From positions 1 through 35,276 of the forward strand of contig RBNJ01000255.1 in assembly GCA_003990765.1 (NCBI GenBank): a stretch of 35,276 nt of DNA, given 5' to 3'. The DNA comes from Jimgerdemannia flammicorona. Taxonomy: Eukaryota. Within the stretch, counting starts at the first letter, position 1; every line of letters starts with the position of its first letter. Position numbers and translations under genes: made by a program. Below the pieces are notes generated by a model. That model was not told the origin of the DNA. It saw only the letters and a program-made list of their open reading frames with translations, and searched no databases. This document shows positions 2,769 through 32,593 of the stretch, one piece after another.

Positions 2769-2784
2769 AGACTCAGACTCTTTG

Positions 2785-3445
2785 GTAACTTGGGGCTACC
2801 CTTATGCTACTGGCAGAGGGCAGCAAATTTTGCATGCTCTCTCTACCAACCCTGCTAACCCCCAGCCTGGATATAGGCTGCTGGAGGGAGCCCCACCCAT
2901 CCCAGACACTTGTGGCTTAGGGCTACTCCTTGCTGCCAGCAGAGAGCTACAAATTTTGCATATTCTCTCTACCAACCCTGCTAACCCCCAGCCTGGATAT
3001 AGGCTGCTGGAGGGAGCCCCACCCATCCCAGATACTTGTGGCTTAGGGCTATCCCTTGCTGTCAGCAAAGAGCTACAAATTTTGCATGTTCTCTCTACCA
3101 ACTCCATATCTACCAATCCTGCTAACTGACTCCACCCACTGACCTGGGCACTAATAGCTTGGGGCTGTCTCTTGCTACTGATAGAGGACTGCAAATTTTG
3201 TACACTCTCTCTGCCTACCCCCCCCCCTCTGCCAATCCCCCTATCCCAGACACTTATGGCTTGGGACTGCCCCTTACTACTAGTAGAGGGCTGCAAATTT
3301 TGCACACTCTCTTTGCTGACCCTGTGCCTACCAACTTGTCCACTGACCCAGACACTAACAGCTTAGGGCTGCTCCTTGCTGCTAGTGGAGAGCCACAAAT
3401 TTTGCATGCTTCCTTTGTTACTACTAACCCTGCTGACCACTACTC
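2785..3445. repeat. Six-unit 102-126 bp tandem repeat with core CAAATTTTGCA
   Basis: Core at 2824, 2950, 3076, 3192, 3294 and 3396 (periods 126, 126, 116, 102, 102); first two units nearly identical. Confidence 0.9.
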
Positions 3446-3566: not shown

Positions 3567-4410
3567 TTAGCAGCTTAAGCCCCACCAAGACTTCAGATAC
3601 ATATATATCCAGATTATCTCAGCATTCAGTACACACCTCTTTAGAGCAATGAGGTCTACCCCATCTGAGAACACCTACTTGATGAGAGCACTGGAGGCAG
3701 GAATCACTAAGTAGTCCTAAGCCATACCATATAGGCTGGGGAAGTTTGTTTGAATAGCTATATGCCTTAGTAGGATAGAGCAGTGGTTAGATTAGTAGAT
3801 TAAATTAGTCCAATATCTGTCTGACAATTTATCTTCCACCAGTTAAGCACCTCTGTACCCTCCAGCAGAATCATACAGTCACTGGTAAGGTAAATGGTAA
3901 GTTCATCTATTGATGGCAACTCTTCTACTAATAGCTCTCTCTTCTTCTTTCTATTGAAGTAAATATAAGACAGGAGGGATCTCTTAGCATATTCATCCAG
4001 ACTTTGGCTGGAACCTTGTGGTGGTATATAGTTTTTCTGGTACACTTCAATTATGACCTACTTGATTCTCTCAATGAAGTACTGCTCCCAGCTCTGATCT
4101 TTATAGTATTGTAGCTTTAAGTATGGGTCTAGCACTATTTAGAGAAAAGAGAGTGAGTTTTTATAGAGATTTCTCTATTTTGAAAAAGACAATAGCTATA
4201 TGCCAACATATCTATACTGATTGAGTATATGGCAGTATCTGTTTTGGAGTAGTATTTTCTGAGCTTGCTTAGAGTAACCTCCATAGTGTCTCTCTAATCT
4301 AGGCTTAACTATAAATTACTACAACTCTCCAGCTTATCCTCAAGCTTATCCTCTAGTCAGTCAATCAGAAGGTTGTATACTGGTAATAGAGCTTATTATC
4401 AGAGTTGTTT
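3567..4410 (-). pseudogene. hAT transposase, C-terminal part including dimerization domain, with short introns
   Basis: KLRKYY, VLDPYLKLQYY, ELTIYL..LNWWK and FPSLYGMA*DYLVIPASS..VFS motifs; stop at 3567-3569. Confidence 0.9.
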
Positions 4411-5605
4411 TTTTTTTTTTTTTTTTTTTTGTTTAATGGACTCTATGTCCTGCAGATTTTTATTGGAAGGGAACCTTGACTATATAGGCCAAAACCCTCC
4501 CCCACCACCCATCAAGCACTGGCCCCCCATTAACCTAGGCTAGCTATTGTCCAGCAGCTCGACCATACTAGGTGTAACAGGGCAAAGTAGCCCACACCTC
4601 ATTCTGCACACCATGCTCTCCCTACCACCAGGGGAAATTCAGCCATATGCCAACGACCGAAAGCACATGCCCAAGAACCCAATGTATGTACAAGACCATG
4701 TCCAAGCTGAATAAAATAGCCCCTGCCACCCCAAAGAGAATGACAGGCAAAGAAAAACTCCTCATCAAAGTATAATACAGTGGGTAGGACCTGGTTCTTC
4801 CAGTTGAGGTGAGTAGAGAACTTATGTGAGGCAGAAGGAGACCCCCAATACCCCACTACTCAAGCCTGTGGGTCTTGATCACATTGCCATATCAGCTCTC
4901 GGTTCTAGTTGAGTGTAGCTAAGATGTCTAAAATGGATAGCCTCGGGCCCCCCAACCCCCTCTGACGACCAGGGCCCAACTCCACAAATCGCCAAAAGAA
5001 GCCGAGAGTGATACCTACCACCTTACTGCACCACACCAATCAAAAGGCCCCACCGAAGCAGCACCCACCCCAGCCCCAATGACTGCCCCCAGTCTGGCAC
5101 CCTACTGATTCACTATAATTGCCCTTCCTCCTATCTGTGACAGCCATCTCTCCTCCCATCCTGACATCATCTAAAAAACAGTCACTTATGCCAGAACTGT
5201 GCTTGCTGGGAAGCTCGCCAAAGCCAGAGGGCCCCACCACAGGTACCGAGGACCTGCAGGTAACCTATACTGAGCACTTGATGCCTAAGGTCAGCCGACT
5301 CTCTACATAGCCCGAGACACACCGAGACAACTCCTTGTTGGCAATGGCAAAAGGAAGAAGATACTGCACCAAAATGGGCACACCCTAGATGCAGCTGAAG
5401 GTACCAGAATCTGTGAAAAAGTGGAGGAAGTACTGATCCAACACCAATAAAGGGGCAACTCATCACTATTGCCCTCCTCCTACTATGCCCCTATAGGCAC
5501 AGCAAATCAACCCAAGGTAGAGGGGGTAATATTAGGGAAAAGGAGACTTGGAAGGTTGCCTACCAAACCTTGTGACCAGTAAGGTAGTGGAGAAAGGAGC
5601 CTCTG
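4411..5605 (-). mobile_element. 1.2-kb non-autonomous non-LTR retroposon, copy 2, inserted in the hAT
   Basis: T-tract at 4408-4430 (poly(A) on minus); 17-bp TSD TATTATCAGAGTTGTTT at 4394-4410 and 5606-5622; colinear with 10431-11649. Confidence 0.93.
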
Positions 5606-5622
5606 TATTATCAGAGTTGTTT

Positions 5623-6517
5623 GTTTGACTATATTCTTTATACAATCATCAAAACACTAGTAGTTATATATGATGAGGTATTGTATTGTACAGAGGCAGA
5701 CAAACCAAGTGTGGAGCCAGAGCAGTCACTACTTACTTCCAAAACTCTGATAATATTCCTAAGTACATCTTACTCACTTTCACCTAGAGCCTTGCTCTAT
5801 ATTTCCTTATCAGTAGTCTCTGTTAAATCTATTAAAAACTTCAATTATTCAAAACAAGTTGCTTCAGCTGACTGAAGAAAAAAAAAATATATTACAGCAA
5901 ACTCCAGTATATACTGGATCATTGCAAATATTAAGTTCCAATACATACAGATGTCCAATATAAGCTCTTTTGGAGCTAAACTGATTACTCTATACTGTGC
6001 AGCAAATTTGTCTCATCATTGTGGAGATGATCAGACTGATACAACCAGTTTGTATAGCTTGGAAATTATACTCAGGGCCCCTCCTCTCTCGGATGTTTTG
6101 TCTATATATATATATAAGATAGTTCTGAACAGTGAGGTTCAGTATATGGACCTGGTATTACATATAACAGCTTTCTATATCAAAGACTATATTTTTCTAT
6201 TTGAGGCTGACTGCTAAAACTTGGAAAAATATTGAGTTGTTTGTGGCATTATCTATCATAATGGCCAAAATCTATACTTGAAATATTCAGTTAGCAAATT
6301 TATATGAAAATAAATAATCAATAAAATCTGTTTTGTTTTAGGATCTCTCTCAAAATACTGATCTGATGGTAAGTCCCCCTTTTTTACCTTAGTTGTGATC
6401 CCAAGCTCTCTGATACAACTAATAAAAGTATCTGTGATATTATCTCTAGAATGAGGGCCAGCAAGTTTGATGAAGTCAAGGGTGAGAGATTTAAGCTATC
6501 AATTGAGATCAATCTAA
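5623..6517 (-). pseudogene. hAT transposase, middle part (RNase H-like core)
   Basis: LDFIKLAGPHS, ILAIMIDNATNN (second catalytic Asp region), HILNLTVQ (CxxH region), decayed TRWNST (CIWNLIFAMI). Confidence 0.85.
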
Positions 6518-7273
6518 TGTAATAACTCTCACTTCTACCCCTCTCTTATCCTTTAGATAATTAGGAAAGTGGACTATTACTTAGGGACTTAGTACACAAT
6601 GTGTACCAAGAAGCCTTCAGTTTGAGAAAGTGCTCACTTATAAGTAAGTGTAGCAGTAGTGCCTTCTGTTTCAAAGGTCTTTCTCTGGTACCCTATTTTG
6701 AGGGTCTTGTTCTTTGCTATACACAGACTGAATTTGCCTTGGAATTCAGATTCAATGAGTTTACTTAAGTCTTTGGAGATTTATATACTGGTCTCAGTTC
6801 TGATAGAAGTTAGCTAGGCTTCTAGAGTTTAGTCAGAAACACTAGAGTCACTTAGATGTCATTACTAAAACTCAGGGGAATGTGTATATATGGGGGGGAC
6901 TTGATTCTTATATCAAGGATTGAACTAAAACTGTTTTATTTTGGATGAAAAACTAGGGGGTATTTATACAAGTTGGTCTGCGATTTCTGACTAAGTATGA
7001 GTGACTAATTTGGTAACTATAATGAGGTTTGTGATCACAACCTTTGTCAGGTGGTTTTTGGTAAAGAATATCTTTGTAATCAGGACCTCAATTACTAGAC
7101 AATGATCAGCAGCTATGGCAACAGTTGCTGTGGCGCCGATTGTTGGGGATAAGCTAGATATTATTTTTCGCATCGTTTCACATCATTCATCATTTGTATG
7201 TCATGCTTTGTTTGTATGATGATGTCATCATCCTCAGGTCACATGATTGCTTGTTATGCCTCATTCTATTATA
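6518..7273 (-). repeat. E1 3' LTR (756 bp)
   Basis: Direct repeat of 16077-16832; plus-strand TGTAAT...ATTATA (terminal CA mutated to TA); PPT AAGGAGAGAAGGA adjacent at 7274-7286. Confidence 0.95.
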
Positions 7274-7436
7274 TCCTTCTCTCCTTAGAAATCAATGTCC
7301 TTATTGATTGAGAAATTGAAAACTAGAGGAGAGAAAGGTGGAGAATCCTGCTCGGGGTTATTGGCATCTTCTTCAGTAGCAGGGGGGGTGGTGGTTGCTG
7401 ATGGCTCACTGTCTAGGATGGAGAAGTCAATGAGGT

Positions 7437-8114
7437 CTACAAATGGTTCTTATATTGGGATAGGTGTTGATGTAGGAGTTCTCCATTTGATGCAGTTGGG
7501 GTCATCCAAGTAGGGTTCTTGGTCCTCATGCCTGGGAATATCCATTTGGATAGGCAGTCCTTCAAAGAGGTCAGAGAGGCCTTGAGCCATTGGTCAGGGT
7601 TGTCATTCAGAAGGGGGCTCCAGTAGGGTTCACAGTCAGTAGACTTGAGGGTGATCTAGGAGTTGGCTTCTTGAGCTACCTTGATCTTTAGTTTGTCAAC
7701 CTCAAAGAAGGAGAGGTTCTGGAAATCCTTCAGTTGGATATAGTTGAGGTTGGGGATTGCAAAGAGTACATGGCACATGATTCAATAGACCTTCTTGGCA
7801 AGTCTTTGCTCGCTCCTGTCTAGGTGGGTCCAATCAGTGACTTGGTCCATGGACAGGTTCTTTACCCATTGGAGGAGTTGATGACTAATCTCATATTTAT
7901 GCTAGATCTCTAGGTGGCTGGTGGCAAGGTAGGCTCTTTCGATGACTTCACAGCAGTTGAGGACATAGTGTCCTAAGTCCTGGCTGGAGAGGTTAAGGGC
8001 CTCTGAGCAGTAGTTCCTTTCTTGGATAGCAATCTGGATGTATCCAAAGAGGTGGTCAACCTGGCTTGGAAGGGGCTGGCTATGGTGGACAGTTTGGCAG
8101 TAGATAGTGGGCAT
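7437..8114 (-). pseudogene. E1 extra 3' ORF, 226 codons, unknown function
   Basis: ATG at 8114, one continuous frame with 3 internal stops (TAG, TGA, TAG); TATAAATA at 8179-8186 upstream. Confidence 0.7.
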
Positions 8115-8761
8115 TCTTATCTTGTCTTTTCTTTGTAAGGTGAGGGGGATGAGAGTTGCAGGGTATTCTTGCCTAGGGTATTTATACTTATTCACCCATC
8201 TGATGTGACCTTCCTTTGGTCATGCTTTCTGGTAAAATGCATAACCTGTTGCTGTAAGCAGAGCATGTGCTAGTCACATGAGAAGATCCTGATTTCAAAG
8301 ATATCATTACTTATAGTTGTGGTTACACAGAGTTAACAGGTCTTGATCCACTTTTTTTTTTGTCTAATTGGTGTAATTGTGAGGACTGGCCATCCTTGTC
8401 TAGGGTAAGGGCTCTCATTGTCATGGTTGGGGGTTTGAACCTCTCATAAATAGACTTTTCTTGTAATCTGAGGCAATTCCTAGTAACAATATCTGTCACA
8501 TAGATGGGCTTAGACTGGTTTTGACATTGTTAACTTTTCTAAGTTCCATATGAAGCCTCCATCATCATCCAGTAGAGATGACATAGATGGTGTGAAATAG
8601 AGTTATTCAAATATGTTTTGCTATACTATACTAGATTGTTCTTTTACTCAGGTATCTTCTTATTGGTTTATCCATAGTGTTCCTTTTTCTGCAATATTCG
8701 GTATTATATATTTCCAGATAAAATATGTAGTATCCTTCTGCTCACTTTGCACTCTAATACT

Positions 8762-10300
8762 TTAGAGCTGTAGTTCCTTTCTTTGCTGGGGGGTGAGTGT
8801 TTCCATGTAGTCCTGGAGGGCTTCACATGCATTCTTCAGAGCTTCTTCTTTTTCCCAGGTAGCATCATGGGTGGGGTAACCCTTCCACTTGATTAGGAAA
8901 AAGCACTTGACTGTTTTGGGATATTTGCAGACCTTGTGGTCAAGTACTTCCTCAATTTCGAATTCCTCATGATCATTGATCCTGATTGGGGGTGGTGGTG
9001 GAATTGTATGCTTGGGGAATAGATTCTCATGGTAGTCCACCAATTGGCTGATATGGAATACTGGGTGTACTCGGATATTGTGAGGAAGTTGCAACTTGTA
9101 GTTGACTTTGCTGATTTTTTCCATGATCTTGTATAGTCCAATTCTTCTAGCATAGAGTTTCTTGGCTGGTTGTTATGCCAGAGTGTCTGGGTGGAGGTGG
9201 TCTATTCTAAGCATGACCATGTCACCAATATTATAGAAGGCTTCTCTTTGCTTCAAGTTTGCATACTTGGTCTGATAGTCTTGTACTTCTATGAGAGTAT
9301 CTCTCATCATTTGTGTAAGGTCAGAAATGGTCTCAGCCAGATCTTGGGCTGCTGGAACTGCTGATTTTGCAGTAGTACTCGGGGTCCTTGGGTATTGACC
9401 ATGGTTCAGGAAAAATGGAGTCTTCTTTATAGAGGTTTGCTGACTGTTGTTATAGACAAACTCAGCATGGGCTAGGTACTTGTCCCAATAATTTTGCTTG
9501 TAACAGCAGAAGATGCTAAGCATCTGTTTGAGAGTCCTGTTGGTTCACTCAGTTTGACCATCAGTCTGAGGGTAGTAGGCAATAGAGAACTTCAGCTTGG
9601 TTCCATGGAGGGAGAAAAATGCCTTCCAGAAGTTGTTTGTGAACTTGGTGTCTCAGTCAGATACAATAGTGCTAGGCATGCCATGTAGCCTGAATACTTG
9701 ATTGAGGAAAATCTCAGCAATCTCTGGTGCTGTAGCAGTGGTCTTAGTGGGTGTAAAGTGGGCTTGTTTACTTAGGTGGCCCATGAATACCACAATGGCA
9801 TCCCATCCTACCTTGGTCTTGGGAAGTTGGACAATAAAGTCTATTGCAATCTGGTCCCAATTGTGACTCAGGATAGGTAAGGGTTGCAGGAGTCCTGCTG
9901 GTAGCTTGTTACCACTTTTAAACCTTTGGCACATCTCACATGAGACCACAAAGTCTTTGATGTCCTTGGTCATCTTTGGCCAATAGAACTCTCTTAAGAG
10001 AAGGTTGTAGGTCTTTTCGAAACCAAAGTATTCTGCTGTAGGAGTATTATAGAGTTCCTGTATGATCTTGAGTCGCAGAGTATCATTATTAGGTACAATC
10101 ACTCTGTCATGGTCTCTGTAGATAAGTCTATCATAGTAGGTGAATCTCTTGGCCATTTGCCCCATGGGTTCTGGAATCTTGACCTCTGGGTCTTGGCAGA
10201 ATTGAAGAAAATTCATCAGAGGGCTGTCTTGCTGGTAGCCATCCTTGATCATTTGGGTAAGGTCTCCAATCACTTTGACCATGAAGACAAGTTTATCTTC
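8762..10300 (-). pseudogene. pol: E1 integrase with C-terminal chromodomain
   Basis: FYWPKM..SCEMCQ, GLLQPLP, IAIDFI, IVSD, VHPVFHISQL; chromodomain EFEIEEVLDHK..FLIKWKGYPTHDATWE. Confidence 0.95.
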
Positions 10301-11602
10301 TATGTACCTGGAGAAACCATCAGCCACACAGTTGGTTTTGCCTGAGATATACTTGATTTCCATATCAAAGTTGGCAATGATTTCCATCTAGCAGGCTTGT
10401 CTGTAGGTTAGCATGGGCTGTATGTAAATACAGCTCCTTTCTCCACTACCTTACTGGTCACAAGGTTTGGTAGGTGACCTTCTGAGTCCCCTTTCCCCTA
10501 ATATTACCCCCTCTACCTTGGGTTGGTTTGCTGTACCTACAGGGGCATAGTGGGAGGAGGGCAATGGTGATGAGTTGCCCCTTTATTGGTGTCAGATCGG
10601 TGCTTCCTCCACTTTTTCTCGGATTCTGGTGCCTTTGGCTGTATCTGAGGTGTACCCATTTTGGTGTGGCACCTTCTTCCTTTTGCTGTTGCCAACAAGG
10701 AGTTGTCTCAGTGTATCTTGGGCTACATAGGGAGTCGGCCGACCTTGGGCATCAAGTGCTCAGTGTAGGTTACCTGCAGGTCCTCAGTGTCTGTGGTGGA
10801 GCCCTCTGGCTTTGGCGAGCTTCCCGGCGAGTGCAGTTCTAGTGTAGGTGACTGCTTTTCAGATGTTGTCAGAATGAGAGGGGAGATGGCCATCACAGAT
10901 AGGCGGAAGGGTGATTACAGTGAACCAGTAGGGTGCCAGGCTAGGGGCGGTCATTGGGGCTGGGGCAGGTACTGCTTTGGTGGGGCCTTTTGATTGATGC
11001 GGTGCAGTTAGGTGGTAGGTGTCACTATCGGCTTCTTTTGGCAGTCAGCAGGGTTGGGCCCCAGTTATCAGAGGGGGTCAGGAGGCCCGAGGCTACCCAT
11101 TTCAGGCGTCTTGGCTGCACTCAACTGGAACCGGGAGCTGACATGGCAATGTGATCGAGGCCTACAGACTTGAGTAGTGGGGTATTGGGGATTTCCTCCC
11201 ACCTCACGTATAAGTCCTTTACTCACCTCAACTGGGAGAACCAGGTCCTACCCACCATGTTGTACTTTGATGAGGGTTTTTTATTTGCCTGTCATTCTCT
11301 TTGAGGTGGCAGGGGCTATTCTATTCAACTTGGGTGTGGCCTTGTACATATGTTGAGTTCTCAGGCATGTGCTTTCGGTCGTTGGCATATGGTTGGGTTT
11401 CCCCTGGTGGTAGGGAGAGCATGGTGCACAGAATGAGGTGCGGGCTTATCAGCCCTGCTACGCCTGGCATAGTTGAGCTACTGGACAATAGCTAGCCTAG
11501 GTTAATGGGGTGGCAGTGCTTGGTGAGTGGTGGGGGAGAGTTTTGGCCTATATAGTCTAGGTTTCCTTCCAATAAAAATCTGCGGGACATGAGTCTGTTA
11601 AA

Positions 11603-11653
<51 letters not shown>

Positions 11654-13709: not shown

Positions 13710-14125
13710 TTGGTAGATCCAAATCCTTTCTTGCTACAGTCTGTCTGAGAGAGTTCAGAGACTTCTTCAATAGTAAGATCTTGATAAATTTCTTCGATGA
13801 TTGCTTGGGCAATTCTTTGACCTGTTTTGACTTCAAATGATGTGTCTCCAAAATTTCACAAGATAACATGGATTTTACCAGTAAATACTTGGTCAACTAC
13901 TCCTCCTCCTAGTCCAATGTTGAACTCTTTAGCTAGGCTACTTCACTCAGCATAGCAGATGTATATTCCTTTGGGAGCTTGTATTGTAATTCCTGTTCAC
14001 ACTGTAGTATTGATACTTGGTGGAATAGTGAGATCTTGGCTGCTGTAGAGGTCATATCTAGCATTGGTTGGGTGAGCCTTAGTGAGGATGGTAGCCTTGT
14101 ACCATATCTTCTATACTTTAATAAT
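13710..14125 (-). pseudogene. dut: E1 trimeric dUTPase, in frame with Gag
   Basis: All five motifs visible through stops: ARYDL, *SSLA, GVVDQVFTGKI, GQRIAQ, CSKKGFGST. Missed by the ORF track. Confidence 0.92.
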
Positions 14126-16076: not shown

Positions 16077-16832
16077 TGTAATAACTCTCACTTCTACCCC
16101 TCTCTTATCCTTTGGATAATTAGGGAAGTGGACTATTACTTAGGGACTTAGTACACAATGTGTACCAAGAAGCCTTCAGTTTGAGGAAGCACTCACTTAT
16201 AAATAAGTATAGTGGCAGTGCCTTCTGTTTCAAAGGTCTTTCTCTGGTGCCCTATTTTGAGGGTCTTGTTCTTTGCTGTGCACAGACTGAATTCGCCTTG
16301 GAATTCAGGTTCAATGGATTTACTTAAGTCTTTGGAGATTTATATACCAGTCTCAGTTCTGGCAGAAGTTAGCTAGGCTTCTGGAGTTTAATCAGAAACA
16401 CTAGAGTCACTTAGATGTCATTACTAAGACTCAGGGGAATGTATGTGTATAGGGGGGACTTGATTCTTGTATCAAGGACTGAACTAAAACTGCTTTATTT
16501 TGGATGGAAAACTGGGGGGTATTTATACAAGTTGGTCTGTGATTTCTGACTAAGTATGAGTGACTAATTTGGTAACTATAATGAGGTTTGTGATCGTGAC
16601 CTTTGTCAGGTGGTTTTTGGTAAAGAATATCTTTGTGATCAGGACCTCAATTACTAGGCAATGATCAGCAGCTGTGGCAACAGTTGCTGCGGCACCGATT
16701 GTTGGGGATAAGCTGGATATCGTTTTCCGCGTCGTTTCGCATCGTTCGTCATTAGTATGTCGCGCTTCGTTCGTATGATGACGTCATCGCCGTCGGGTCA
16801 CGTGATCGCTCGTCGCGCCTCGTTCTATTACA
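16077..16832 (-). repeat. E1 5' LTR (756 bp) with TATA box (~16520-16527), CRE-like TGACGTCA (16779-16786) and CACGTG E-box (16799-16804)
   Basis: TG...CA ends; direct repeat of 6518-7273; motifs read directly. Confidence 0.95.
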
Positions 16833-16837
16833 TCCAA

Positions 16838-17600
16838 TAACTGGTAATGTCCAGAAATAAAATTGCATTGAGGGATATCCATGTGTCAATTGTAAACGAA
16901 ATTTTGCCTGCTGAATTCTACTTATTGAATGTAAGATTATATTGGTGAGCTCTTTATAAATATATATATATAATTTAGCTTGCAAAGGTCATAGTACTGC
17001 TCTTATTTTACTTGAAATATCTGGCAGAGATTGTTGTACTCCTTCTTATAGGCCTCCAGGACATCTTTGCAAATAGTATCGGTACTTGGCAAATATAAAT
17101 CATGCTTGAGGAGGCCAAAGATGCTATACAATTGGTCACTCTCAATAGTTGTAAATGGCTGGTCTGTATACATAATCCAGCAAATGAGCTGATTTTGAAA
17201 TTCTACCAAAGAGTATGGCTAAATATTTTTGATTAAACAGGGTTGTTGATACAGAAATGGTCAGGCAATCAGATAAATATACCCACCACAGCTTGGATGT
17301 CAATTTTATTTATCTCTATATTCTTTTTGATTTTGTCAGAATGTTTGTCTTTTAATATTGATATATGTTTGAAGTTATATTACTAAGCATTTTGAACTTC
17401 TGGCTAATATAGTTTATGAGGGTGGATGAAACAGTATCATGTATGTGTCAAATAAAAGTGTCAGTTATATCAATAGGTACATCTTAATTTTTTATCTACA
17501 ATAATTATAAATAACATCATCTCCTATCTTAGTATAATGTTATCAGATTTTGGAGTAAGGATTATATGGAAGGTGTAGAACTATCAGGGATATTTGACTT
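16838..17600 (-). pseudogene. hAT transposase N-terminal part (decayed BED finger, first catalytic Asp)
   Basis: GKISFTIDTWIS..FLDITSY; FQNQLICWI..QPFTTIE..PSTDTI; decayed IW.HY..(C)NYC BED-like motif at ~17480-17550. Confidence 0.8.
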
Positions 17601-17734
17601 AAAGCATCATTGGTACTGTGAACTGTTGAAGACTAATCTGTTGATATGTATGTTTGTATATTTGTATATATATATATATTTGCATATATGTATATATATT
17701 ATATATATAGATGTATCTAGTATATAAGTTATGT

Positions 17735-18113
17735 GGAGGATTCAGATTAGAGAATTTGATTGAAGGATTTAGATGAGGATTTGGATTGAAGAATTTGAAT
17801 TGAAGGATTTGAATTAGAGGATTTAAATTGAAGGATTCAAATTAGAGGATTCAGATTGAGTAATTCAGATTAAGTGATTCAGATTGAGTGATTTGGATTG
17901 GGTGATTCAGATTAAGTAATTTGGATTGAGTAGTTCAGATGGAGTAGTTTGGATGAGACAATTCAGATGGGTGATTTGGATGAGGTGATTCAGATGGGGT
18001 GATTCAGATTAATCCAAGTTGATTCAGATGGCTTCAGATTTAAGATTCAGATCAAACTATTATGTAATGAATTGAATCCAGATTTGATTCAAATTGACTT
18101 ATTTAGAGCACTA
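17735..18113. repeat. hAT subterminal ~15-bp GATTYRGATT repeats and probable terminal inverted repeat (minus-strand TAGTGCTCTAAAT...)
   Basis: Many ggattcagatt/gatttggatt units; sequence switches abruptly to retroposon homology at 18114. Partner TIR not found in the window. Confidence 0.65.
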
Positions 18114-18782
18114 GTTCCAGTTGAGTGTAGCTAAGACATCTGATCTAGATAGCCTTGGGTCCCCTGACTACTCCTAATAACTGAAGCCTAATCTCATAAA
18201 TTACTAAAAATAGTCAAAAGTGATACCTACCACCTAACTACTCTATATCAATTAGACCCTAATAACCACTCTTAGCCTAATATTCTACTGGTCTACTATA
18301 ATTACTCTTCTTCCTATCTGTAATGACCATCTCTTCTCCCATCCTGACTCTATCTAAAAAGTAGTTATCTATATCAGAATCACACTCACCAAAAAGCTCA
18401 CCAAAGCTCAGAGAGCTCTACTATAAATACCAGAGATCTGCAAATAATCTATACTGGCACTTGATGCCTAAGATTAACTGACTCTATATATAGCCTATGA
18501 CTTACTAGATAATATTTTATTAATGATAGCAAAGGGAAGAAAGTATAACATCAAAATAAGAATACTTCAGATATAGCTGAAGGTATCAAAAATTATAAAA
18601 AAGTGAAGAAGATATTGATCTAATACTAATAAAGAGACAACTCATCACCATTGTCTCTCTTTCACTATCCTGTAATAGATATAGTAAATCAACTTAAGGT
18701 AGAGAGAGTAAAAGTTGTAGAAAGTAGACTTAAAAGATTATCTACTAAACTTTGTAACTAGTAAGATAGTGGAGAAAGAAGT
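18114..18782 (-). mobile_element. Heavily mutated 5' fragment of the same retroposon/LINE family (copy 4), cut by the hAT end
   Basis: Colinear with 4902-5600 with extensive C>T/G>A change; ends in GGAGAAAGAAG versus GGAGAAAGGAG. Confidence 0.85.
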
Positions 18783-19046
18783 GTTCTTTCTACTTATTAT
18801 ATCTCCTTTTCTCTACTATTTAATATTTGGTACAATTCTCACAAATCTTATTAATATAATAGTAAAGTTCTTTACTATAGAAACTCCTTATTTCTATTAT
18901 AATCACTTCTCTGTATTTATTAATAATAATATAATTCTCTTTATTATTGAAGATTTCTACTAACTAGTAGATTTTTTGATCAAAAATAATTTGTTTTAAT
19001 TTGAATGTTAACCTCTAAGTCTTAATAGTTAAGCTGATATTACTTT
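18783..19046 (-). pseudogene. Second, more decayed copy of the unknown gene fragment at 1218-1480
   Basis: Antisense translations align: YYLIFDVILINLINVMMKLITVEISYHYCNHLSIFINNDIVLFII versus YYLIFGTILTNLINIIVKFFTIETPYFYYNHFSVFINNNIILFII. Confidence 0.75.
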
Positions 19047-19142
19047 TATTAAATAACTTATCTTTAAACTTTTTTAAATTATCAAAAGTTAGATATGGTT
19101 AAATTTGGGTTACTTTGAAATTTCTCTATAGTTAAACTAAGT

Positions 19143-20652
19143 TATTATAAAGAGAGATACTTTATTAAAGTTACATAGATTATATATTTCTCTATGTTAC
19201 TAGATAAATGATATAAATCTGATAGAATGACATAAGGTTACATACTGGCATATTGAGTTACTATCTCAATACTCTTACTCAATAAGATATATAATCCAAA
19301 AAAAAGAATACAATGTGTACTTTTCAAAAAAAAGAACAAACTAAAGTAAACTAAATATAACTAATAGAATGCTATCTAGATAACTATAGAAGGTTAAAAT
19401 TCTCTACTTATAAGCATGAAAATAAGTAAAGAATATAGTAAAAGACTAGTAATATAGAAATTTTCATGAGTCAAAAAGTATTTCAAAATATATCCAAAAA
19501 TATTCATAAGTAAAGAATATAATATATATAATCTACTTATAGATAAGAGATACATATAATTATCTACTTCACAATACATGAATCTATTGTTAAGGAGATA
19601 TCTATTAATTCTTTTATTCTATAGTCATGCTACTTATTTGATATTGTATAGTTCTCTGCATAATCTATATATGAGCTTGCTATTTTTATTCTTACAATTG
19701 ATAGACATATAGTTTAGTGTCTATGTCATAATTCAGAAATACTATCTTGATGTCTATTTGATAGATTTTAAGATCATATACTATATCAATTATAAGGAGT
19801 ATTCTAAGTAAAGTAAGCTTAAATACTAGTAAAAATGTCTTATTATAGTCTATACTATAATTCTGTAAATAACTCTTAGTAACAAAATAAGCTTTATATC
19901 ACTCTATATTATTATCAGTATTGTACTTTATTCTATATACCCACTTGAATCTAATTACTTGATGATTTGGCAAAAGAGGTACTAAATCCCAGATATCATT
20001 CTTGATGAGCAAGTTATATTCCTCATCTATTATATATTTTTATTTCTTATTATTAATATTACTTATAGCTTCATCATATGTATTTAGCTCACTAGATATT
20101 ATGATATATATATATTCATATGCTTTGACATAGTTTATATAGTCCTTATATTGGTGTTTAGGGCTTACTAAAATATTCTAATAATTTTCTAAATTGGAAC
20201 AAGTTTCTCAGCAAATTTTGGAGTACTTTTGCTTATATACTCCTTATAAAGGATCTCTCATCACTAGGCTTACTATCATCTTCATCCTCAATCTCTATTA
20301 TTCTTAGCTCAGCCAACTTTGGCTCAGATACATATAGTGAATAATTTTCAACTAGCTATATTTGAAAAATATTTTTCTTTACCACTGAAGAGATAGATGA
20401 CAGTTGTTCTGATTGCTATATTTATACTGGCTGGAATGTAGAGCTTGTTTCAACTAGTACTTCCACATAGATCTCCAAGCTCTTTTCTCTAAACTATATA
20501 TTATGCAAAATGACTATATATTACTTACATAGATTTCATAGCCTATATACTTTGTTGGAATATCCAAGAAATATATACTTACTCACCTTGAGTTCAAATT
20601 TATATCAAATAGTATTACTTTTATTAAGGACATATGCATCATATCTAAATAT
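19143..20652 (-). mobile_element. Ty1/copia remnant: SH3-like domain, N-terminal RT, internal deletion, probable PPT (~19272-19283) and short 3' LTR (left boundary uncertain)
   Basis: IFLGYSNKVYRL; DEEYNLLIKNDIWDLV..KWVYRIK; YKAYFVTKSY..DYNKTF..QIDIKIVFLN, the transition-decayed form of YKARFVAKGY..DY.ETF..QMD.K.AFLN. Confidence 0.85.
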
Positions 20653-21099
20653 TGTAATGTAGCGGATGCTAAGATGAGCAAGTATGTCAGATTTCTTTAT
20701 CTTGAATTCTTGTCTTCTTGACTCCCAGAGTCAGTAGTTCCTTGAGGTCAAATGTATTTTTAAAGAGGTAATCCTGAAGGTCCTTTTATCGGTATACTTG
20801 TTCTTTTTCTAACACTTTCGATCTGAGGTTTATTTACTTAAAGATACTACAAGTTTGCTAGCTATGAGATGGCTACTGAGTTATGTGGCTAAGTTATGAG
20901 TCATTTAGATAATGTCTAGAAATTTAGACAATGTTGAAATGCTATACTAAATTGGGGTGTTCGATTTGGACAATGTCTAGAAATTTAGACAATGTCAGAA
21001 TTGGTGACTGCTAACTATAAGGCTATACTACTTTGGGAATGGGTGCGATCAAGTGTTTATTCCCTATTTCCTTCTTCCTAATTCAGCTATACTATCACA
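20653..21099 (-). repeat. E2 3' LTR (447 bp; 11-bp deletion removes the TATA region)
   Basis: TG...CA; direct repeat of 26236-26693; PPT-like AGAAGGAAG at 21101-21109; internal duplicated ACAATGTCTAGAAATTTAG-like units. Confidence 0.93.
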
Positions 21100-21136
21100 A
21101 CTTCCTTCTGAATAGATGGTCTCGTCTCTGAGGCAT

Positions 21137-21517
21137 TTATTCAAACTCCCATGCTTCAACTGTCTGTATGGTTTTATACTGTTCAATTTGCTATATGACT
21201 GTCTCCCAATGATGTCTCCTTACTTTATCGAAATCGGTAGGGGTTACTCCTCGCAGGTGAGCTAATGCTAATTCATCTTCTCGAAATAGCTTGTGGATCC
21301 TTTTGGTAATAGTGATCTGTGAGTAGGAGAGTTGGCACTCTGCGATTCAGTCTTCTTTGGTCTTTGCTGGATCCTGGTTGAGCACCTGTCTAAGCTTAAA
21401 GTACTCTTGGAACTCTGCCTGATGTTGGTAGGCACTAAAATGCGAGATCTGAGAGAGATGAGTCTGCACAATACTCTGAATACTATCATAACATTCCTCT
21501 ATAGTCGGAGGCACCAT
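21137..21517 (-). pseudogene. E2 extra 3' ORF, 127 codons, unknown function
   Basis: MVPPTIEEC...EYFKLRQVL...ITKRIHKLF...LRGVTPTDFDKV..WEFE* with two internal stops; aligns with the E1 extra ORF. Confidence 0.65.
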
Positions 21518-21577
21518 TGTCTTTCAATAGCCCTTTGTGCAGCACTAGTGATCTTGAGTGCTGCTGCAGTGCTCTGG

Positions 21578-22226
21578 TTATTGGCCATGGTACTTCTTGA
21601 GTCGGTTTTGGTGAATGGTGGTGGGGATTATTGTGCCTGAGGGCTTTCATAGTCAGAAAGTAGTCCCTTTTATATCTTGCACCAGGTAAGGTCCTTCTCA
21701 TTTAGGCTCCAGTTTTCATGACCAAGAAGCTTCTACCATATTCTGATACACCAGGACTTCATCTCCTATCTTGATAATCTCCAGGGGCTTGTGGGTTTTT
21801 TCCGCATTGTTCCATTGCAGTACCTGCACCTTGATGATGTAATCCTTTGCCTTTTTCCTGATCTGGTACAATCTCCATATCTCTATGTCCACATGCTTCC
21901 AAATTACATCATTACTTACTGACAAACTTCCACCAGAACTTTCTTCACTGAATAGCATTTCTCGTGGTGTAAAATGGGTAGGTTCTTCTTGCTTTGTCAT
22001 AGGTGTTTGTTCCTTCTATGTGACCTTATTCATGTACCTCTTTCATCACTTGATTCTTCTAGTACTCAGGGATGACTAATTGTTATCCTTTCTTGAGTAT
22101 TTCTCCATCAGTTTCGAATTGTTTCCATGTCTGATTAATAATTGTTTTTGTCCATTCTTCCAGATGCAGGGGCATCTTTCGCTGCTCCAGGTAGCTGATA
22201 ATTCCATAGTACAGCTCCTTATTCAT
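21578..22226 (-). pseudogene. pol: E2 integrase remnant lacking the catalytic core
   Basis: MNKELYYGIISYL..VHE*GHIEGTNTY joined directly to TPREMLF..IGDEVL..KLEPK*EGPY..HQNRLKKY. Confidence 0.85.
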
Positions 22227-23700
22227 GGTGATTTTGTAGGAGTGGGGTCCTTCGGGGTGTCTATGAGAGGGCGTCGGCATTGGCATTGGTTCTTCCAGGG
22301 TAGTGGGTGATTGTGGCATCATATGCTTACAGTTTCATAATCCATCAGATATAGATTCCTTTGGGCTCACTAGTAGTAAGCAACCAGGTGAGTGCTGAGT
22401 GGTCTGTCTGGATGGTAAAGTGTCTTCTAGCTAGGTAGTAGTGGAACTTCTCTACAGCCCAGATGACTGTAAGGCATTCCAGCTTATAAGACTCATAGGA
22501 TTGCTCTGCCCTGCGAGTACCTTGGCTGAGATAGGCTACCATGTATTCGATGCTATTCTTCTTTTGTGCGAGGACAGCTCCAAGTCCCATTGCACTGGCA
22601 TCTGTCTGCAGAATAAACTCTTGAGTCCAGTTGGGTCTTCTCAGGATTGGGGCCTGAGTCAATCTGATCTTGAGCTTGTCAAAAGCTAGTTACTGCTGCT
22701 GAGTCCACTGGAACTTGACCTCTTTTCTGAACAGATCATAGATAGGACTGGCAATGTGGAAGAACCTTCTAATAAATCTTCTGTAGTAGAATACAAGTCC
22801 CATGAAGGCTCGGGCTTCAGTGACACTGGTAGGTACTGGGTATGCTGCTACTGTCTTGATCTTTGTAGGGTCTATATGTGTTCCTTCACGGTTGATGATG
22901 TATCCAAGGTATGCGATTTTTTCTTCTCCAAACTTGCATTTCTTGGGCTTGATATAGAGGCCATGTTTGCAAAGCCTTCTGAGGATTTCCTCAGTATAGT
23001 CTAAGTGCTCTTTGGCTGTTCGGCTGAAGATGATCACATCATCTACGTATACCATCATCCATTTCTCCATAACATCTCTGAAGATACTATTTATCATTTG
23101 CTGGAAGCTTGCTGGTGCATTGCATATTCCAAAGAGCATATGGAGATAGATGTAGGTTCCATCAGGGATGATGAAGGCTGATCTTTTGCTGGCTTCTGGT
23201 ATAAGGCTGATTTGGTAGAATCCTGAGAATATGTCCAAGGTGGTGTAGAATTGTGATTCATTCCCCAGTATGATGAGAATATCACCGATGTTGGGCAATA
23301 GTTGTCTGTCCTTCTCTGTGACCTCATTGAGTCTTCTCTAATCTGTGCAGAGTCTTGGTGCAAATTCTCCTGGTTGGCTTCCTTTCTTTGATGCAAGGAC
23401 AATGGGAGAGGACCAAGGGCTGCTGGCTTCTTCAATGATACCGGATTCCTCCATTTCCTTGATTTCTGTTTTGAGCCATTCTCTGTATGCTGGTGGAATG
23501 GGGCGGGCCTTCTGATAGATTGGTTTTGCATCTTCAGTATTGACATTATGATAATACAAGGGTTTCTTGGTCTTGATGTCCTTGAAATCCATGGCCAGTA
23601 CATCCTTGAATATATGCAAAAGGCTCTGCAATTCTTCCCTGAGGGGAAAGTTTCTTCTGATTGTATAGGTGTGTTTGTCTTGGCTTTCCTCCTTCTTGTG
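22219..23700 (-). pseudogene. pol: E2 reverse transcriptase and RNase H
   Basis: SSPWSSPIV, SGFYQI, FGICNAPASFQ, YVDD, TDASAMGLGAVL, TDHSAL, NADALS. Confidence 0.95.
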
Positions 23701-23739: not shown

Positions 23740-24155
23740 TCCTGTAGAGCCAAATTCAGCTCTTCCTTGTTGAGTTTGTCTGATGTTTGCGACCTCCTTG
23801 ATTCTTGGATTAAGGACAGGTAGGATGAGCATTTGTGTCAGCCGATCCTTCTTCCTTACTTCAAATGGGATTATTGGGTTGTGGTTCCTGGCGAGGAGAA
23901 GGATTTCTCCAGTATAATTCAAATTGATGACTCCTCCTTCTATAGATATTTCACTTTTCACCAGGCTACTCCTTGTCTTGAGGATTCTGATATGGTTTGG
24001 TGGGATGGTTACTTCAATTCCTGTTCCTAGAATGGTAGTGGTCTGTGGTTCGAGTATTGTGTGTGTAGTAGTATATAGGTCCATTCCAGCTGTATTCTCC
24101 AACTTGTACTGTGGCATGACTGCATCAGGGTGAATCTTTCGTATCTTGACTGTGA
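23740..24155 (-). pseudogene. dut: E2 dUTPase between protease and RT
   Basis: AGMDL, TRSSL, GGVINLNYTGEI, DRLTQ, RAEFGSTG within ORF 23338-24507. Confidence 0.93.
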
Positions 24156-26232: not shown

Positions 26233-26235
26233 AGT

Positions 26236-26693
26236 TGTAATGTAGTAGATGCTAAGATGGGCAAGTACGTCAGATTTCTTTATCTTGAATTCTTGTCTTC
26301 TTGACTTCCAGAGTCAGTAGTTCCTTGAGGTCAAATGTATTTTTAAAGAGGTAATCCCGAAGGTCCTTTTATTGGTATACTTGTTCTTTTTCTAACACTT
26401 TCGATCTGAGATTTATTCACTCAAAGATACTGGGTTATTTATATAAGTTTGCTAGCTATGAGATGGCTACTGAGTTATGCAGCTAAGTTATGAGTCATTT
26501 AGATAATGTCTAGAAATTTAGATAATGTCGAAATGCTATACTAAATCGGGGTGTTTGATTTGGACAATGTCTAGAAATTTAGACAATGTTGGAATCGGTG
26601 ACTGCTAACTATAAGGCTATACTACTTTGGGAATGGGTGTGATCAAGTGTCTATTCCCTATTTCCTTCTTCCTAATTTGGCTATACTGCCACA
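26236..26693 (-). repeat. E2 5' LTR (458 bp)
   Basis: TG...CA; direct repeat of 20653-21099; TATAAATAA on minus at ~26435-26443. Confidence 0.93.
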
Positions 26694-26697
26694 ATAT

Positions 26698-32188: not shown

Positions 32189-32593
32189 CAGTATGCCCTG
32201 CTGCACTCCAAGGCCAAACCCCCAGCCAAAGCCCACCCAGAGGATGTAGGATATGATCTTCACAGCCTGGAGAATGAATCTATCAAGTCTGGAAAAACCT
32301 TCATGGTCAGAATGGGATTAGCCATGCAACCACCTCAAGGAGCTTATATTCAACTGACCTCAAGGTCTGGACTTGCCAGACAAGGGATAACTGTAGAAGG
32401 AGGAACCATTGACCCTGAATATACAGGTGAAATCAAGGTTATCCTACACAACAGCAGTGCAGAATGGCACCGAATCATTAGAGGACAGAAGATTGCCCAA
32501 GCAGTCTTCATGAAGGTTAAGACCCCACAGTTACAGGAAGTCTCGGAACTAACTAAAGGAACAAGACAAGCCAAGGGATTTGGAAGTTCAGAC
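32189..32593 (+). CDS. dut: E3 dUTPase domain (stop-free) within pol
   Basis: VGYDL, SRSGLA, GGTIDPEYTGEI, GQKIAQ, RQAKGFGSS. Confidence 0.95.

Follow-up and report, generated by a model that had tools for sequence, protein, structure and literature searches.

The window analysed here is a stretch of 35,276 nucleotides (nt) from Jimgerdemannia flammicorona (contig RBNJ01000255.1), made up of nested and decayed Ty3/gypsy retrotransposons with long terminal repeats (LTRs), which we call E1, E2 and E3. The stretch under study, positions 21137–21517 on the minus strand, lies at the 3' end of E2, between its integrase and the polypurine tract that precedes the 3' LTR. E2 runs on the minus strand and encodes protease (PR), dUTPase, reverse transcriptase (RT) and RNase H (RH) according to Pfam, plus a remnant of integrase (IN), recognised by translation, that is without the catalytic core. 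Pfam finds no rve domain in E2 and no Chromo match in its 3' stretch; E2 is a non-chromodomain element, whereas E1 is a chromovirus. Taken as a whole, the evidence makes it very likely that the stretch is a decayed copy of a separate accessory gene of E2, an open reading frame (ORF) of 153 codons here called ORF3, and one that probably has a distant, longer relative in E1.

ORF3 of element E2

Positions 21137–21517 hold the 3' four-fifths of ORF3. The gene starts further upstream with its own ATG (21588–21586) in the context CCATGG, and its first 25 codons (21514–21588, minus strand) lie outside the integrase frame and overlap the end of integrase. These codons are 92% identical to the N-terminus of the metagenomic protein P0004 and match positions 1–27 of the family hidden Markov model (HMM) with 30.7 bits. 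The remainder (21137–21517, minus strand) spans 127 codons, is broken twice by internal stops and terminates at 21139–21137; it scores 172.5 bits against the family HMM and ends on EAWEFE and a stop, as do three database proteins (P0004, P0008 and P0009) and the ORF3 of the metagenome contig L001. The original prediction, which treated 21137–21517 as an ORF, missed the first 25 codons (21588–21514), which are in the other frame. From the end of ORF3 to the polypurine tract and LTR the distance is 26 nt, and the stop codon at 21137 is kept in related contigs (short contigs from four sequencing runs). ORF3 of E2 is a separate gene that fills the space between integrase and polypurine tract: its own ATG overlaps the integrase end, its stop falls shortly before the polypurine tract, and it is on the sense strand of a gag-PR-dUTPase-RT-RH-IN element. 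The copy in the window is dead, its frame being broken by a 10-nt frameshifting deletion and two internal stops.

Intact relatives exist in metagenomic data. When the ORF3 remainder was compared with 1.84 billion representative proteins, all of which were read, two clusters of six and two members were recovered (P0001 and P0002; E 6.5e-43 and 2.6e-40, 69–70% identity), and a profile search with 492 candidates brought the number of known members to 14, every one an unnamed prediction from a short ENA or JGI contig of soil metagenomes. P0004, P0008 and P0009 are each 153 amino acids (aa) long, start with MAN(N/Q) and end with EAWEFE. A further relative is L001, a metagenome contig of 6479 nt that carries a near-complete E2-like element with gag(CCHC), PR, dUTPase, RT, RH, IN and ORF3, collinear with E2 at 76–86% nucleotide identity. 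Its ORF3 (5795–6256) is intact, has 153 codons with the same start (MAN) and end (EAWEFE), and shares the start context CCATGG with E2. The ORF3 of L001 and the three full-length proteins are all about 70% identical to that of E2. L001 opens with the tail of ORF3 followed by polypurine tract and LTR start (2–125) and closes in an LTR (6290–6479), so the contig is circularly permuted; this could have come about because LTRs were collapsed by the assembly, because copies stand in tandem or because the source was a circle with a single LTR.

The stretch had also been read as a possible C-terminal extension of integrase, since in E2 it lies in the integrase frame behind three stops. That 21517–21137 shares this frame in E2 is correct. 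The C-terminal SH3/GPY-like module of the E2 integrase, identified by translation, occupies 21578–21850 (minus strand); its first in-frame stop (21580–21578) falls 8 nt past the ORF3 ATG, and a second follows 14 codons further. In L001, the ORF homologous to this module (5425–5838, with weak SH3_Tf2-1 and MLVIN_C matches) ends at a TAG (5836–5838), 44 nt inside ORF3, and this same TAG is the second stop of E2. At least one of the three stops is thus a natural pol terminator, and the three cannot be read as decay of an extended integrase. Furthermore, DNA alignment with L001 places a 10-nt gap in E2 directly after codon 25 of ORF3, so that the remainder came into the integrase frame by accident. 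In all eight E2-type proteins that include an N-terminus, the segment upstream of 21517 is encoded in the other frame and runs from M-A-[NT].. to ..AIERQW. The leader therefore encodes the beginning of an independent ORF that has an ATG to itself, not a continuation of the integrase, which in L001 stops at this point. The full read of the 1.84 billion representatives, made with no length limit, returned proteins of 107–130 aa only and no integrase fusion. A decayed integrase extension is, in our judgement, extremely improbable.

It could alternatively be argued that the stretch is a non-coding 3' untranslated region with accidental frames, and that the metagenome proteins are artefacts of gene calling. 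The stop counts in E2 are indecisive by themselves (3 over 127 codons, where two other frames have 4 and 5), and every database member of the family is, as stated, an unnamed prediction on a short contig. This explanation is nevertheless contradicted by the conservation of start, stop and length (153 aa) in four of four full-length copies at about 70% identity, and by the pattern of substitution. Between E2 and L001, ORF3 differs by a proportion of 0.181 at nonsynonymous sites (pN) and 0.879 at synonymous sites (pS), a ratio of 0.21 over 147 codons, for a single pair with pS saturated; nucleotide identity (67%) is below the amino-acid identity of about 70%. For comparison, pN/pS of the same pair is 0.11 for RT-RNase H and 0.14 for dUTPase, and the identity of RT-RNase H is 87%. 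The direction of these values is clear and points to purifying selection on a protein that evolves faster than its neighbours. The 102-aa open frame antisense to ORF3 (21332–21640, plus strand), which we take to be accidental, has no Pfam match and no counterpart of at least 80 aa in L001. A purely non-coding origin accordingly has next to no probability, and ORF3 is best regarded as a gene of its own.

Searches for further material added little. None of 13 pattern matches for P0004 in viral contigs was confirmed. A candidate contig, L002 (39% identity over 44 residues), was rejected as a probable chance match; the similarity lies inside a 626-aa ORF, on a contig dense in long ORFs. The seven sequencing runs listed, with shares of 0.05–0.08, included no RNA run, and contigs from four runs gave short related copies but no joints.

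ORF3 of element E1 and its relation to that of E2

The chromovirus E1 also carries a genuine separate ORF3, analogous to that of E2. It extends from an ATG at 8114 to a terminal stop at 7287–7285 (7285–8114, minus strand), is interrupted by a 1-nt frameshift at 7584 and by four internal stops, and measures about 277 codons in the window and about 293 in its relatives. The frame holds 7 stops in 319 codons; the remaining five frames hold 14–20, and shuffled sequences 18.1 ± 4.1 (1st percentile 9). Over 175 ungapped residues, 101 are identical to P0021 (214 aa; E 1e-74), which is the sole database relative apart from its cluster mate P0022 (259 aa); the latter covers the C-terminal part and ends with DIDF, like E1. 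E1 ORF3 scores 228.8 and 50.9 bits with an HMM for which P0021 and P0022 were the sole input. Its stop abuts the polypurine tract and 3' LTR, and a spacer of 648 nt separates its ATG from the pol stop that follows the chromodomain. A search with P0021 returned P0021 alone among 111 candidates, none of three pattern matches for P0022 in viral contigs was confirmed, and neither was any of 44 matches in genome contigs.

The original prediction proposed that the two 3' ORFs are homologous, from an ungapped alignment of 37 residues. Both peptides are where it implied them to be, in E1 at 7785–7895 (minus strand), within ORF3, and in E2 at 21284–21394 (minus strand), and the alignment has 7 identities in 37 positions and a BLOSUM62 score of 25. 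Both ORFs also occupy the same position: in sense orientation, they follow pol and precede the polypurine tract and 3' LTR. The preceding YEIS and YFKLR had been derived from a common Y..(I/L)G, and intact relatives bear this out: P0021 and P0022 read YEIG, and most E2-type proteins YFKLG.

The window copies by themselves do not carry the argument. None of 20,000 fixed-register shuffles reached a score of 25, a result that leaves the choice of register out of account. Local alignment of the 139-aa E2 frame with the three sense frames of the E1 3' region gave a score of 35, against 35.8 ± 4.8 in shuffles; the register of the original prediction was not the best, and since 163 of 300 shuffles reached 35, the similarity of the two copies is not above chance. 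In a six-frame scan of the window, neither family profile detected the decayed copy of the other type. The best non-self match of the E2-type HMM was 8243–8368 (minus strand), at −0.2 bits and E 0.3, covering HMM positions 78–118 including the W-I-x-E-C motif that is conserved in the family. It lies in the E1 spacer just upstream of the ORF3 ATG, in a frame other than that of ORF3, and is probably due to chance.

Above-chance similarity appears only when intact relatives are included, and it then appears in both directions. With hhalign, P0021 against the E2-type alignment gave E 0.026, in the register of the original prediction, and the comparison of family with family, covering 70 columns, gave P 0.0074. 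When near-full-length rows were used, hhalign scored 20.6, a value reached by 5 of 230 column shuffles (median 12.8, 99th percentile 21.7). The E2-type HMM scored 6.3 bits on P0021 (0 of 2000 shuffles as high) and 5.8 bits on P0022 (1 of 2000), and −1.2 and −1.4 bits on the same proteins reversed. Conversely, the E1-type HMM scored 11.0 bits on P0004 and 7.3 bits on P0009 (0 of 1000 shuffles each). Its match to P0004 is ungapped over 79 columns, with E1-type positions 70–148 aligned to E2-type positions 62–140. All profile comparisons give this one register. Within it P0004, P0008, P0021 and P0022 share a basic helix, AK[KR][IV]H..F[R], whose His is replaced by Tyr for some members in the HMM match lines; between the two types it reads AKKVHQVFR and AKRIHKLFR. 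The predicted helix boundaries also coincide, in models that are both of low confidence (predicted local distance difference test, pLDDT, 50.6 and 34.6).

Several observations weigh against common ancestry. The E1-type HMM failed on two of the four E2-type proteins tested, P0008 (81 of 1000 shuffles) and P0011 (548 of 1000), which represent the other E2-type sublineage. The probability reported by hhalign was 1.9–5.3%, and in an initial shuffle control, whose distribution had a long tail, the score was reached by 11 of 200 shuffles and the maximum was 138.5, probably due to fragment rows. For amphipathic helices, shuffling of residues is a permissive control, and the E1-type family consists of three sequences. 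The two 3' ORFs could instead be unrelated, captured or born independently at a permissive site between pol and polypurine tract, their similarity being chance or convergence of amphipathic helices. Such an origin would fit the chance-level similarity of the decayed copies. The ORFs differ in length (153 against about 293 aa) and in setting, E1 having its 648-nt spacer where in E2 ORF3 overlaps integrase, and the available sections of PMC5408684 describe the ORF3s of LTR elements as heterogeneous and independently acquired. Independent origin does not readily explain why significance recurs in both directions and in a single register once intact relatives are used, nor why the Y..[IL]G motif and the basic helix AK[KR][IV]H..FR are shared by P0004, P0008, P0021 and P0022, with helix boundaries in agreement in the low-confidence models. 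Moreover, E1 and E2 are themselves related, both having dUTPase between PR and RT. At their RT-RNase H identity of 38%, an ORF3 in the twilight zone is to be expected, because ORF3 is at about 70% where RT-RNase H is at 87%. We regard independent origin as a real but doubtful possibility.

Homology of the E1-type and E2-type ORF3 is, on balance, probable. The shared part is likewise probably an ancestral core of about 80 residues with four helices, running from the Y..[IL]G helix to the basic helix. The homology put forward in the original prediction thus receives weak but recurring statistical backing from profiles that contain intact relatives, in its own register, and none from the window copies it was drawn from. 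The shuffle and profile–profile check that it suggested came out divided: in favour for the hhalign P value and column shuffles and for P0004, P0009, P0021 and P0022, against for the decayed copies and for P0008 and P0011, which stay within shuffles.

The surrounding elements and repeats

In each of the three elements a dUTPase separates protease from RT (E 4e-26, 3.4e-19 and 2e-25 by Pfam for E1, E2 and E3), at approximately 13710–14100 in E1, 23740–24120 in E2 and 32210–32590 in E3; pairwise identity among these domains is just 28–37%. RT-RNase H identity between E2 and E3 is 44%. The same arrangement in chromoviruses has been reported from basidiomycetes in the available sections of PMC2864245 and PMC5408684. 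Like the soil origin of the relatives, this would fit a fungal host.

E1 lies on the minus strand and encodes protease, dUTPase, RT, RNase H, integrase and a chromodomain by Pfam. The chromodomain (8762–8899, minus strand; Pfam Chromo E 1.4e-10) ends with the pol stop at 8764–8762. The polypurine tract (7274–7284, minus strand) lies between the ORF3 stop and the 3' LTR; it was read from the sequence, and the LTR start was compared with the 5' LTR. The 3' LTR (6518–7276, minus strand) is 91% identical to its partner at 16077–16835. E1 is interrupted at 10427–11629 by a 1.2-kb repeat. E3 is on the plus strand, from about 28400 to the end of the window, where it is cut within integrase.

In E2, the polypurine tract (21101–21110, minus strand), also read from the sequence, directly precedes the 3' LTR (20652–21100, minus strand), which is 92% identical to the 5' LTR (26235–26694). 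Relative to L001 4858–5403, 546 nt of the integrase core are gone from E2 at 21979–21981 (minus strand), and related contigs from the four sequencing runs diverge into unlike sequence exactly at 21979/21981. The U3 region of the E2 LTRs (20915–20995 and 26520–26600) contains two copies, about 75 nt apart, of a dyad of TGTCTA and TAGACA with 6 nt between them. At a similar place, the L001 LTR (6395–6479) has at least four tandem 18-mers with an AGATCT core. Both are candidate regulator-binding repeats.

A repeat family of about 1.2 kb is represented at 233–1224, 4405–5609, 10427–11629 (inverted) and 18114–18781. Between the first two copies, which are 4357 nt apart, is a 3.2-kb region without pol domains, in which we found tandem repeats of 88–126 nt (2774–3438) and one sub-threshold hAT dimerisation match on the minus strand. 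The repeats and their 3.2-kb interior look like a non-autonomous LTR-like element. The copy in E1 is within or adjoining RNase H, next to a long T run. The interval between E1 and E2 (17001–21000) is very AT-rich, with a GC content of 0.23–0.31 compared with about 0.43 in the elements, and contains one of the 1.2-kb repeats in degenerate form.

Decay in the window is dominated by transitions. The CG-rich start of the E1 5' LTR (16790–16835) has CA or TG in the 3' LTR (7240–7276), and between E2 21101–22300 and related contigs transitions account for 172 of 198 differing places in run X2 and 113 of 124 in run X1. This fits deamination of methylated targets or of targets like those of repeat-induced point mutation.

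Properties, known counterparts and possible role of ORF3

The original prediction spoke of a small conserved helical unit that it could assign to no family. This description holds: the E2 stretch is genuinely coding, is predicted to be helical and is assigned to a family by no library. Pfam gave nothing below E 0.1 for both 3' regions in all sense frames or for the antisense ORF, and for the intact ORF3s nothing but one sub-threshold hint. Among PDB sequence profiles, the best matches were E 0.052 (an asparaginase) and E 1.2 (TrfB) for alignment A3, and E 6 for A2. AlphaFold2 models reached a pLDDT of 50.6 (from 18 sequences) and 34.6 (from 4 sequences), values too low for assigning or comparing folds. 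In the ESM Atlas, no related named clusters were found for either query. Clusters named Closter_coat, Translat_reg and DUF6192 were among the 30 nearest of both queries, the first two being equal in length and member count between the lists, which is a lead only; such shared clusters may be hubs for orphan helical proteins.

The 19-residue Kyte-Doolittle mean is customarily taken to indicate a transmembrane segment at about 1.6. The maximum in five of five ORF3 proteins is 0.17–0.66, so that they have no hydrophobic segment and ORF3 is not an envelope protein; Pfam gave no env family for it either. The proteins are predicted to be all-helical. Each of the three full-length E2-type proteins has one Phi-xx-Phi-xx-Phi-x-Phi motif at residues 144–152 in an acidic C-terminus, and P0022 has similar motifs in an acidic tail with a net charge of −9 over the last 40 residues.

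By position, ORF3 belongs to a known class of retrotransposon accessory ORFs. Our comparisons with published elements refer to the available sections of the papers cited. Fungal Ty3/gypsy elements with an "add. ORF" of unknown function beside gag and pol have been described (PMC2864245), an extra ORF as here; PosPlaTy3-5, from the same paper, has dUTPase between PR and RT like the elements of the window, and fungal dUTPase-bearing elements combine dUTPase with a chromodomain, as E1 does. In those sections the "add. ORF" has neither sequence family nor function, and it is comparable with the present ORF3 by description only. LTR elements of bdelloid rotifers carry diverse ORF3s downstream of pol, and the authors caution against labelling every ORF3 env (PMC5408684). 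They resemble the present elements in being Ty3/gypsy-like, with dUTPase between PR and RT and a lineage-specific ORF3. They differ in that their ORF3s are env-like, bear transmembrane segments, or encode a GDSL esterase or DEDDy exonuclease, whereas the ORF3s described here have no transmembrane segment or enzyme family; furthermore, the rotifer elements as described there are without a chromodomain, which E1 has. Plant Retand elements have long regions between pol and LTR (PMC11963269). The chromodomain extension of chromovirus integrases (PF00385), located 3' of the integrase SH3/GPY module and present in E1, is also unlike the E2 stretch, which has no Chromo match, forms an ORF of its own outside the integrase frame and is predicted to be all-helical. 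Compared by the descriptions in these sections, the ORF3 family matches none of the ORF3 types described. A literature search found no description of the family, which is weak evidence for its being undescribed since literature is not searchable by sequence.

The lack of a hydrophobic segment, the predicted all-helical structure and the acidic C-terminal motif together suggest a soluble, helical, non-envelope regulatory accessory protein. Retroviral Rev/Rex and Tas-type factors offer a model for accessory regulators. Another is CERV of the Caenorhabditis elegans element Cer1, which like ORF3 is a small non-structural LTR-element protein beyond gag and pol and is required for export of genomic RNA (PMC10309623); as a functional model, the export of unspliced genomic RNA by a soluble protein with a leucine-type C-terminal motif, it serves by analogy only. 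In a speculative scheme of this kind, the helical core of ORF3 would bind nucleic acid or a partner, the acidic-hydrophobic C-terminal motif would serve as an export or activation signal, and the protein would assist expression of the element that encodes it, in the manner of Rev/CERV or of a transactivator. ORF3 itself would be expressed from a subgenomic or reinitiated message, which splicing or an internal start might provide, or reinitiation where the stop and start overlap. This specific mechanism is a tentative and rather unlikely proposal. No Pfam, PDB-sequence or fold match backs the function, and the C-terminal Phi pattern is short and common. The most far-reaching version, to which we give a low probability, is that ORF3 would be an ancient and rapidly evolving accessory gene, common to dUTPase-bearing Ty3/gypsy elements with and without a chromodomain, and a counterpart of Rev and Tas. 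With a four-helix nucleic-acid-binding core and a C-terminal export or activation motif, its product would target either RNA of the element itself or the U3 dyads.

The results are relevant chiefly for annotation and for those who specialise in transposons. No part of LTR retrotransposons is less well understood than the additional ORFs that follow pol, which are often misnamed env or dismissed as untranslated region. Here, what appeared to be an integrase tail full of stops is an independent gene under selection, with a family of its own in soil data, and the neighbouring chromovirus E1 holds a second such gene. Should the two be unrelated, the site between pol and polypurine tract would be a recurrent landing place for new genes. 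If they are homologous, the accessory gene would be older than the split between chromo and non-chromo lineages of dUTPase-bearing elements, which would argue for an essential regulatory role and make ORF3 a defined candidate for a retrotransposon-encoded regulator.
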